Origin: an uncultured Actinomycetota bacterium
GTDB lineage: Bacteria; Actinomycetota; Actinomycetes; Mycobacteriales; SCTD01
Direction of reading: 5' to 3'
Assembly (NCBI GenBank): GCA_963844295.1
Contig: CAWJNR010000004.1
Coordinates: 281,306-345,305, forward strand
DNA: 64,000 bases
Shown: piece after piece, positions 40,671-47,366 of the stretch
Numbering within the stretch: position 1 is the first letter of the stretch
Layout: each line of letters opens with the position of its first letter
The notes under the pieces: generated by a model
Database searches by the model: none
What the model was told of the DNA's origin: nothing
Seen by the model: the letters and a program-made list of their open reading frames with translations, nothing else
Translations under genes and position numbers: made by a program

Positions 40671-40740
40671 CTTGCATCCAGCGTGCGTGGCCCCGGTCCC
40701 GGCGAGACCGTAAACCTGTTCTGACCTGGCCTTTCGCACC

Positions 40741-40780
40741 TGGACCGCGCTGGACCGTTCTGGACCGTTCTGGACCGTCG
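40741..40780 (+). repeat. four tandem 10-bp iterons TGGACCGNNC (CTGGACCG core)
   Basis: tggaccgcgc tggaccgttc tggaccgttc tggaccgtcg read directly. They lie about 150 nt upstream of the integrase start and about 70 nt inside the junction at 40671. Confidence 0.9.
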
Positions 40781-44926: not shown

Positions 44927-45157
44927 CTAGAGCGTGCCTACGACGTCACCACCGCCGTCGAGGATGACCAGCGGAAAGGCGCTCCCCGTCTCCTTCTGAG
45001 CGAGCAAGGCTTCGACTGCCTCACGTTGCCCGGCCCCGGTGAAGTTGGAGTCGGGCCGCACGGGCTGCCAGGGCGCGAGGAACCGCCGGTTCTGCACGTA
45101 CAGCGACCTCAGCGTCTCGGCATCGTCGGACGTCAGGCGGCGGGTGACGGCGGGCAT
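44927..45157 (-). pseudogene. GNAT (RimJ/RimL-like) acetyltransferase, 5-prime fragment of 76 codons
   Basis: MPAVTRRLTSDDAETLRSLYVQNRRFLAPWQPVRPDSNFT...FPLVILDGGGDVVGTL then a stop. The acetyl-CoA-binding half of the fold is missing. The break lies 47 nt from an inverted TTCCCGACC motif. Confidence 0.6.
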
Positions 45158-45284
45158 CGGCCGATGCTGCCAGAGCGAGCGGGAGGTGGCCGTAGCCGCT
45201 GGTCTCGTACGTCTCCGCGCTTGCGTCCTGGGCCCGCTAGCTGTTCTCGGTGCCAGCCCGACGCTGGCGCGCGGCTGTGGCGGC

Positions 45285-45800
45285 ATTTTTTTGTGTAGAT
45301 GACTTGGTAGATAGAGATGGGAGGCAAAGGGATCAGAAAGAGAGAGGTCTAAAGGATCTGAGAGCAGATAGACAACGACGTAGCGCTCTGGAGAAAAAGG
45401 AAATGGAAGAACAACGAGTAAAAGTAAGTGTAACTGGACGAGACTACTGCAAGGTAAGCAACAACGAGCGAGTGGTGTCACAGGATGAGGTGATCGAGAC
45501 GGCGTAAGTGCGGACGGCAGACGGGAAGTGCTGGGCTGCGCGACGGTGACAGCGAGACGAGGCGTTCTGGACGAGTCCTGCGCGACACGAGACGCGGTCT
45601 GGACGGCGTACAACTGGACAACAGCGACGCGCAACGCGGCCTGGCGAATGCCAACGGGGCCGTCTCCAAGGCAGCAGCTGGCAGCGCTGCCGGGTCCACA
45701 CAAGCGCAACGACCTGGCCAAGGTCAGCAAGAGCCACGACAGAGATGGTCGCCGCGACGATAAGGAGGTTGCCGAGTTCGCGCAGGGTCCCGACACCCGC
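45285..45800 (+). other. non-coding purine-rich, T-poor, lower-GC tract with CTGGAC repeats
   Basis: Hand count for 45301-45540: A84 C35 G87 T34, i.e. 71 percent purine and 51 percent GC. For 45541-45660: A27 C36 G45 T12. It begins after a T7 run. CTGGAC occurs at 45434, 45567, 45599 and 45614. There is an imperfect tandem duplication CTGCGCGAC..CGAGACG..TCTGGACG at 45535-45610. Confidence 0.7.
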
Positions 45801-46079
45801 GTGAATCTGGGTGCCGCTGACGCGCCGGGGAGTGGCTGTCCTGGCACCGAGAACGGCGGTCGGCCGGACCCGACCCACGGCGCAGAGGTACCTGTAGCCA
45901 TCCGTGCCGGCGTACCCGGGCGGGCCTCTTGATCGGGAGTGCCTGTCCTACGGGGACCGGTCCCGGGGGTGCCCTACCTTCGGGTCATGCACCCCACCCG
46001 TGACTAGGGCCGGCCGCTCCCTTCGCGCCGCCGCCCCGTCCGCAGCACGCCGGCCCAATGGCCGGGGTGCCCAGTCGTC

Positions 46080-47366
46080 ATGGAGCTCTGCATGTCCCGT
46101 CCTGCTGGGGCGGCGTCCTCTTCGGCGTTGCTTCGCCTGCCCGGAGCACTGCCCGCGTTCGCCGCCGCCGCCGTCCTTCGCCTGTCCTACGCCTCCGTCG
46201 TGCTGTCCCTGCTGCTGGTCGTGCAGGGTGCGACCGGTTCCTTCGCCGTGGCCGGCACCGCTGTCGGGGCTTACGCCCTCCCGAGCTTGTTCGCGCCGTA
46301 CAAGTCGCGCCTTGTCGATCGCGTCGGCGTGCTGCGCACGCTCACCTGCCTCGGTGTCGGCTACTCATCCGTCCTAGCCGTGATCGCGGCTTGCGCGGTC
46401 GGTGGCGTTCAGATCGCGCTGCCGTACCTGCTCCTCGCCGCGGCCTCAGGAGTCCTGTCGCCCCCGGCGGGGCCGGTCATGCGCGGGATCTGGGCCGTCC
46501 TCACCCCCGACGAGCTCGGACGCAGCCGCGCCTACAGCCTGGACGCTGTCGCAGAGGAGGGGCTGTTCGCCGTCGGGCCGCTGCTGGTCGGGGCCGTCCT
46601 GCTGGTCGCCGGCCCGGAGACGGCGCTGGCGGTCACGGCAGGGCTCGCGCTGACTGGTGCCTGTGTCCTCGGCCAGTCCCGAGCCGCCGTGGCGGTCGCC
46701 GCTGCTGCTCGGCTTCCGTCTGGGCGGCGGCTGCTCGGGCCGCTGCACCTTCCCAGGGTGCGCTGGATCGTCGTGGCGATGCTCGTCGTCGGGTTCGCGC
46801 TCGCGCCGCTGGAGGTCGCCGTGGTCGCCCGAGCGACTCAGGCAGGGTCGCCCGCCGCGGCGGGGTACTTGCTCGCCGTTCTGTCGGTCGGCAGCGCAGC
46901 GGGTGGCCTGCTCTGGGGGCGGCTGGGTCGACCGCCGACCACCGGATTGCTCCTCACGGTCATGGCCATGCTCGGCGTAGGAACCGCGGTTGCCGGGCTC
47001 GTCCCGTCGCTGCCCGCGCTGGGGGTGGTGCTCGCGCTGACCGGCGCTGCCATCGCGCCGGCATTCGTCGTCGCCTACGTCCTGGCGGACCGGCTCGTCG
47101 ACGACAGCGTCCGCACGGAGACCAACACCTGGGTCACCACAGCGGCCAACATCGGTGGAGCCGCAGGCGCCGCCGTCGCCGGACTGATCACTGAACACGT
47201 CTCCGCCCGGGCCTCGTTCGCCGTGGGGGGCGGGCTCCTCATCCTCGCGTTGCCCCTGCTGCTTCTCACGCGCAGTCGCACGCACCCGGGGACCAGCAGC
47301 CTCACCACAGGTATGAAGCCGGAGCCACCGCCCGAACCACTCGCTGGCTCACCTAGCCGCGACTAG
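46080..47366 (+). CDS. MFS transporter
   Basis: 428-aa ORF with about 12 TM helices. Ala/Leu/Gly/Val-rich with typical MFS spacing. Confidence 0.75.
   Translation: MELCMSRPAGAASSSALLRLPGALPAFAAAAVLRLSYASVVLSLLLVVQGATGSFAVAGTAVGAYALPSLFAPYKSRLVDRVGVLRTLTCLGVGYSSVLAVIAACAVGGVQIALPYLLLAAASGVLSPPAGPVMRGIWAVLTPDELGRSRAYSLDAVAEEGLFAVGPLLVGAVLLVAGPETALAVTAGLALTGACVLGQSRAAVAVAAAARLPSGRRLLGPLHLPRVRWIVVAMLVVGFALAPLEVAVVARATQAGSPAAAGYLLAVLSVGSAAGGLLWGRLGRPPTTGLLLTVMAMLGVGTAVAGLVPSLPALGVVLALTGAAIAPAFVVAYVLADRLVDDSVRTETNTWVTTAANIGGAAGAAVAGLITEHVSARASFAVGGGLLILALPLLLLTRSRTHPGTSSLTTGMKPEPPPEPLAGSPSRD

Follow-up and report, generated by a model that had tools for sequence, protein, structure and literature searches.

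A dead IS256-family transposase fragment in an actinobacterial genome, overlaid by one-strand C-to-A replacement of probable sequencing or assembly origin

The window, by which we mean the whole 64,000-nt stretch of DNA that was analysed, contains a tract of about 500 nt with an unusual base composition, which lies between a truncated acetyltransferase gene and an intact transporter gene. The features of this locus, in window positions, are as follows.

44930-45157, minus strand: truncated gene of a RimJ-like GNAT acetyltransferase, of which the N-terminal 76 codons are present, identified by matches to PDB 3IGR and NCBIfam NF008072.
45240-45256 and 45841-45857, plus strand for the left arm: 17-nt inverted pair (GCTGTTCTCGGTGCCAG / CTGGCACCGAGAACGGC) around the transposase relic, 94% complementary.
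45286-45292, plus strand: T7 run, two bases ahead of the abrupt left edge of the transposase homology.
45295-45771, plus strand: internal fragment of an IS256-family (Transposase_mut) transposase gene, identified by blastn, by the PF00872 match of its relatives and by tblastn.
45295-45534, plus strand: part of the relic with heavy one-strand C>A replacement.
45535-45771, plus strand: near-normal part of the relic.
45772-45968, no strand: unassigned spacer that separates the relic from the native upstream sequence of the MFS gene, without transposase homology.
46080-47366, plus strand: intact MFS transporter gene (PF07690, E 1.1e-21).

The tract was singled out in the initial annotation, which described it as purine-rich, T-poor, low in GC and unlike anything else in the window, and the base counts given there are reproduced exactly: positions 45301-45540 hold A84 C35 G87 T34 (71% purine, 51% GC), only 12 of the 120 nt of 45541-45660 are T, and the T7 run does stand before the tract. 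The anomaly is present in the file and far above chance. When the 64-kb window is scanned in 240-nt windows, the tract is the maximum for purine content (0.713, against a mean of 0.504 and an sd of 0.037), with a next-highest value outside it of 0.633, and also the minimum for GC content (0.479, against a mean of 0.727), with a next-lowest value of 0.621. In the whole 3.57-Mb genome it is the 200-nt window of lowest GC, at 0.46 against 0.744 +/- 0.040. An imperfect tandem duplication had also been reported in the tract; a 15-nt pair of 87% identity is indeed there, but it is part of coding-derived sequence.

A BLASTN comparison with actinobacterial genomes, which the initial annotation had proposed, was run against 40 related genomes and matched 45295-45761 (plus strand) to IS256-family transposase genes of related actinobacteria at 73-78% nucleotide identity. 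The matched genes belong to the relatives G023 (4 copies), G003, G011, G018 and G013; these sequences are multi-copy, often close to contig ends, and the protein that they encode matches PF00872 (Transposase_mut) in Pfam with an E of 6.7e-98. When a full-length relative of 418 aa was searched against the window by tblastn, only aa 118-279 aligned (E 2e-14), in an alignment that is split across two frames and runs through stop codons. The relic covers codons ~118-279 of ~418, about 39% of the transposase gene, and it contains 7 stops in one frame plus several frameshifts or single-base deletions.

Over aa ~118-279 the relic aligns codon by codon with the transposases of IS256-family insertion sequences (PF00872), and in an alignment of this kind to transposases from the same genus and family it retains the FLDATY and ISD(A/S)H blocks, which we take to carry the first two acidic catalytic residues of the IS256-family transposase. 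It differs from these insertion sequences in having stops and frameshifts and in lacking much of what defines them. A complete transposase ORF with all three catalytic acidic residues is absent, since only aa ~118-279 remain, and neither a start codon nor the C-terminal part is present in the relic. Extension of the alignment into the flanks found no significant transposase homology left of 45295 or right of 45771, the terminal inverted repeats and target-site duplication of a ~1.3-kb element are not recognisable around the relic, and no direct repeat was found flanking it. There is no intact copy anywhere else in its own genome; searches of that genome by DNA and by protein found no second copy of any kind, which removes explanations by duplication, by a mechanism of the diversity-generating retroelement (DGR) type or by an intact IS. 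An exact 33-mer taken from the garbled part had no match among the genome contigs searched.

On the strength of these alignments the tract is a dead internal fragment of an IS256-family transposase gene, and as biology such a fragment is ordinary and not a new kind of element. Among the candidate readings offered earlier, a foreign DNA remnant was the right one, the remnant being the transposase fragment, and the RNA and iteron or origin readings find no support. The initial annotation had counted against its own view the case in which the tract, after correction for damage, proves to be conserved protein-coding sequence; with 73-78% identity and the tblastn match to aa 118-279 this is what we find, though the copy is dead.

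That the only homologues of the tract are protein-coding transposase genes speaks against its encoding a structured or protein-sponging non-coding RNA, a reading that we find hardly credible although the tract is intergenic and purine-rich words such as GAGACG and GACGAG recur in it. An Rfam 15 scan of the tract, also proposed in the earlier work, returned 0 matches at E<=1, and a scan of five related loci at gathering thresholds returned nothing. A tRNA/tmRNA scan found none, RNA folding of both strands was no better than that of shuffled sequences (z +0.84 and +2.04, so there is no excess fold), and a promoter and terminator scan found none in the tract.

The codon alignment bears in the same way on the proposal that CTGGAC repeats make the tract an iteron region, a replication origin or an integrase arm site. 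Four copies of this hexamer do occur in the tract, at 45434, 45567, 45599 and 45614, and there is a true array of four at 10-nt intervals next to int-1, but the tract copies are irregularly spaced (133, 32 and 15 nt), and CTGGAC is a common hexamer found 90 times in the window. Two of the four tract copies are conserved Leu-Asp and Trp-Thr codons (FLDA, FWT) in every relative, and the other two arise from single changes. We give this reading next to no chance. The four CTGGAC at exact 10-nt spacing adjoining int-1 (40740-40775) are themselves a genuine iteron-like array.

As a reference for substitutions in the relic we used the twelve closest of 80 further family members from GTDB genomes, and scored the sites at which 9 or more of these twelve sequences have the same base. 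Measured against this 12-sequence consensus, C has been replaced by A at 34 of 127 ancestral C, whereas none of 139 G has become T (Fisher p = 8e-13). Across the whole relic G is kept at 134 of 141 sites and A at 59 of 62. Outside C sites the relic is 88.9% identical to its closest single relative (L033); this comparison counts 44 C>A changes and no G>T change.

The C>A effect sets in abruptly at 45295 and fades by about 45535 (~250 nt), with C kept at 2/9, 6/18, 6/18, 7/15, 14/18, 14/18, 17/17 and 12/19 of the sites in successive 60-nt bins from 45295. Within 45295-45534, under the same 9-of-12 criterion, only 21 of 60 ancestral C survive and 28 of 60 have become A, while 70 of 71 G, 29 of 29 A and 28 of 33 T are unchanged. 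A few T>A changes are found as well. The replacement depends on the 3' neighbour, having affected 26 of 39 C before C or G against 2 of 15 before A or T (p = 6e-4). The alignment shows few indels in this worst zone, with neighbouring bases intact. In 45535-45771 C is kept at 57 of 72 sites with 6 C>A changes, and the alignment shows several one-base deletions there, mostly of one C of a CC pair.

The C>A changes strike conserved first and second codon positions and generate TAA and TAG stops, and for this reason they are not ordinary divergence. The purine-rich, T-poor and low-GC look of the tract arises because C on the plus strand became A in ordinary coding sequence of 70% GC. Read from the substitution pattern, then, the odd composition of the tract is a one-strand C>A replacement, which was overlooked in the initial annotation.

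Ordinary neutral decay of an old pseudogene or of foreign low-GC DNA is, given the strand asymmetry, a very improbable source of the composition. The tract is a dead mobile-element fragment, which would fit such decay, but decay of this sort is strand-symmetric, and the counts are 34 C>A against 0 G>T. In addition the intact transposase relatives are high in GC, and the effect is graded over 250 nt inside one fragment.

A diversity-generating retroelement was considered and rejected. Such elements resemble the case at hand in producing base-specific differences involving adenine between related sequences, but the direction is wrong, the ancestral base of the tract being C and the derived base A; there is no template/variable pair, as the tract is single-copy in the genome by DNA and protein search, and the product is a dead fragment.

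A real mutational origin would require a strand-coordinated hypermutation cluster in the IS relic, read as G>T on the minus strand. The route proposed for it is that resection at a double-strand break or deletion junction (45294/45295) left the minus strand single-stranded, that its guanines were oxidised or lost, and that adenine was inserted opposite the lesions at fill-in, before end-joining. Damaged single-stranded DNA at a break is reportedly a source of one-strand clustered mutations in the yeast work of Gordenin and colleagues. Such damage is predicted to strike one base type on one strand, with an abrupt start and a gradual weakening away from it, as is seen here; the edge at 45295 is also where unrelated sequences meet, the few T>A changes would be explained by adenine placed opposite lost purines, and the replacement is clean, with few indels where it is worst. 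The tract is thus like the kataegis-like clusters of damaged single-stranded DNA in its single base type, single strand, clustering and sharp edge, but unlike them in density: about half of all C are replaced over 240 nt, far above known single-event clusters. C>A is not the usual spectrum of cytosine damage, and we know of no bacterial example of such a strand-coordinated cluster. We regard hypermutation of this kind as unlikely, in view also of a sister tract on the same contig, of comparable, cruder base-dropout junk elsewhere among contiguous assemblies, in one case within a housekeeping gene, and of the demonstrably error-rich state of the assembly, each of which is described below.

When the whole genome was scanned for base-depleted windows, strong C depletion turned up at three places only, all on the plus strand of contig C4, one of them being the tract studied here. 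The other two, both C-free, are the following.

C4:73146-73620 (= L011:3147-3621), outside the window, plus strand: C-free tract with zero C in ~475 nt.
C4:73983-74036 (L011:3984-4037), plus strand: short C-free tract, 360 nt beyond the larger one.

The larger tract is composed of 57% G, 22% A and 21% T and is non-repetitive. It has an abrupt left edge, C recovers gradually rightward to about 73800, and its strand and polarity are those of the tract studied here. Its start coincides with the last codons, at the 3' end, of a hydroxyacyl-CoA dehydrogenase gene that is conserved in relatives. No codon periodicity was seen in it, and a cytosine-tolerant, ungapped genome scan for its undamaged source gave, among the matches listed, no non-self match below 15 mismatches. 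The tract overlies a minus-strand PAS-like gene. The loss of every one of roughly 170 C is not expected from a mutational process, and 0 C in ~475 nt is not plausible from damage. For the C>A changes to be real, the relic would have to carry a natural and extremely dense one-strand G>T cluster at a break or end-joining junction, and the C-free tract would have to be a more extreme product of the same kind; we hold this combined account to be decidedly unlikely. If it were true, a localized, guanine-specific mutational process so far undescribed in bacteria would be at hand, and the tract, should its bases prove real, would document in a wild bacterium a rarely seen local hypermutation of one strand.

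Of 401 genomes belonging to the same order, 20 contain stretches of 128 nt or more without C or without G, mostly well within long contigs. In three of these genomes (G340, G210 and G147) the stretches are tandem repeats, which may be natural, and in two they are poly-G at contig starts. Base-dropout junk in genomes of the same order lies at the following loci.

L115:961-2000, L120:1405-2010, L122:1441-1945, L110, L112 and L118: base-dropout junk in same-order genomes.

Poly-T and poly-A runs of 1-3 kb are seen among the base-free stretches of this order. In one same-order genome an mdh-like gene contains poly-A followed by ~500 nt of filler made of A and G only, another sequence has poly-G followed by ~900 nt of C-poor or C-free filler beside normal coding sequence, and a 7-contig genome of the same genus has ~480 nt of C/T-only filler. 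Within the genus, base-free stretches were found in genomes of 4, 7 and 30 contigs and in 0 of 6 sampled genomes of at least 230 contigs, and same-genus genomes of 10 and 60 contigs were likewise without them, all of these being small numbers.

The assembly that contains the tract is error-rich. The rpoB gene is frame-split into at least 4 pieces and rpoC into 2 (G000:C2:2865-6156 and C2:2-2597), and marker completeness for the 3.57 Mb in 4 contigs is 65.6%, against 90-100% in relatives of comparable size. With so many single-base indel errors, genes of the window that appear frame-damaged, such as the integrases, may in reality be intact. Because the assembly is error-rich, with rpoB and rpoC frame-broken, an artefactual origin of the C>A changes becomes more likely. 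The T7 run ahead of the relic, which aligns opposite CCCGCC of the relatives, may on that alignment be garbled sequence too.

Taken with the substitution data, these observations indicate that the C>A replacement probably arose in long-read sequencing or in consensus building and assembly, and was laid over a real IS relic. The homology, the spectrum, the gradient, the quality of the assembly and the recurrence of junk are observed directly, and from them we infer a shared technical cause for the tract. In one stretch of read, C would have been systematically miscalled as A and some C deleted instead, with G, A and T left untouched, and the miscalled stretch would have been beyond repair by polishing.

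Errors of related kinds have been described. In long-read metagenomes assemblers report sequences without any read behind them (bioRxiv 10.1101/2025.04.22.649783), spurious noise reads occur in nanopore data (PMC5872496), and nanopore basecalling makes strand-specific, base-replacing errors (PMC9414165). The tract resembles such long-read artefacts in that one base is lost on one strand, that it stands in a highly contiguous, frame-error-rich assembly with a sister C-free tract on the same contig, and that it is like the junk of other contiguous assemblies. The base-replacing, strand-specific miscalls as published concern tandem repeats and not unique sequence (PMC9414165), whereas the tract is unique coding sequence that is still 76% identical to its relatives and shows a smooth gradient.

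Two further points count against the artefact. The flanking MFS gene, 300 nt away, is without frame errors, so the region is not generally of low quality, and the replacement is unusually clean where signal-level miscalls might be messier. We still prefer an origin of the C>A changes in sequencing or assembly, and see no new RNA or DNA element in the tract. Its practical value is as a warning that highly contiguous long-read public genomes carry stretches in which one base has been partly or wholly erased on one strand. Where erasure is only partial, the stretch resembles unique and complex non-coding DNA whose composition seems alien, and it is easily taken for an RNA gene, an origin or a foreign island; a simple check, in which a stretch is aligned to relatives and each substitution is compared with its reverse-complement counterpart, exposes erased tracts.

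On the left of the relic, the long minus-strand ORF at 44927-45901 is spurious, as had been suspected, with the exception of its last 76 codons. This part is the GNAT fragment, which matches PDB 3IGR (ribosomal-protein-S5-alanine N-acetyltransferase) with an E of 1.5e-6, residues 6-75 aligning to chain positions 13-83 of 184, and NCBIfam NF008072 with an E of 1.5e-8, under the curated cut-off. The stop after 76 codons is consistent with truncation at the island junction noted in the initial annotation.

On the right, the MFS protein has 80% aa identity to a metagenome homologue and no frame breaks. Homologues of the gene share sequence only from about 45969 onward, and when the same locus was sought through the MFS gene in metagenomes, all eight homologues found had different upstream neighbours and no IS relic. 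The ~110 nt upstream of the gene (45969-46079) are conserved in metagenome homologues (L023:636-754; L025:1077-1098), and a CATGCA...GTGACTAGG motif is common to the MFS upstream regions. This conserved region may be a leader or operator.

The 17-nt inverted pair is the only inverted pair flanking the relic; its arms are 584 nt apart and do not lie at IS ends. Its core has only two exact copies in the genome, where the motif was not seen as a repeat family, and the extended alignment of the flank foldback is marginal, with a score of 30 against a shuffle mean of 18.7 (sd 3.0, max 33). In the related genome G017 only ~25 nt separate the two arms, which form a hairpin immediately upstream of glnA (L007:1501-1563), and in view of these hairpin arms the relic may lie inside a former hairpin.
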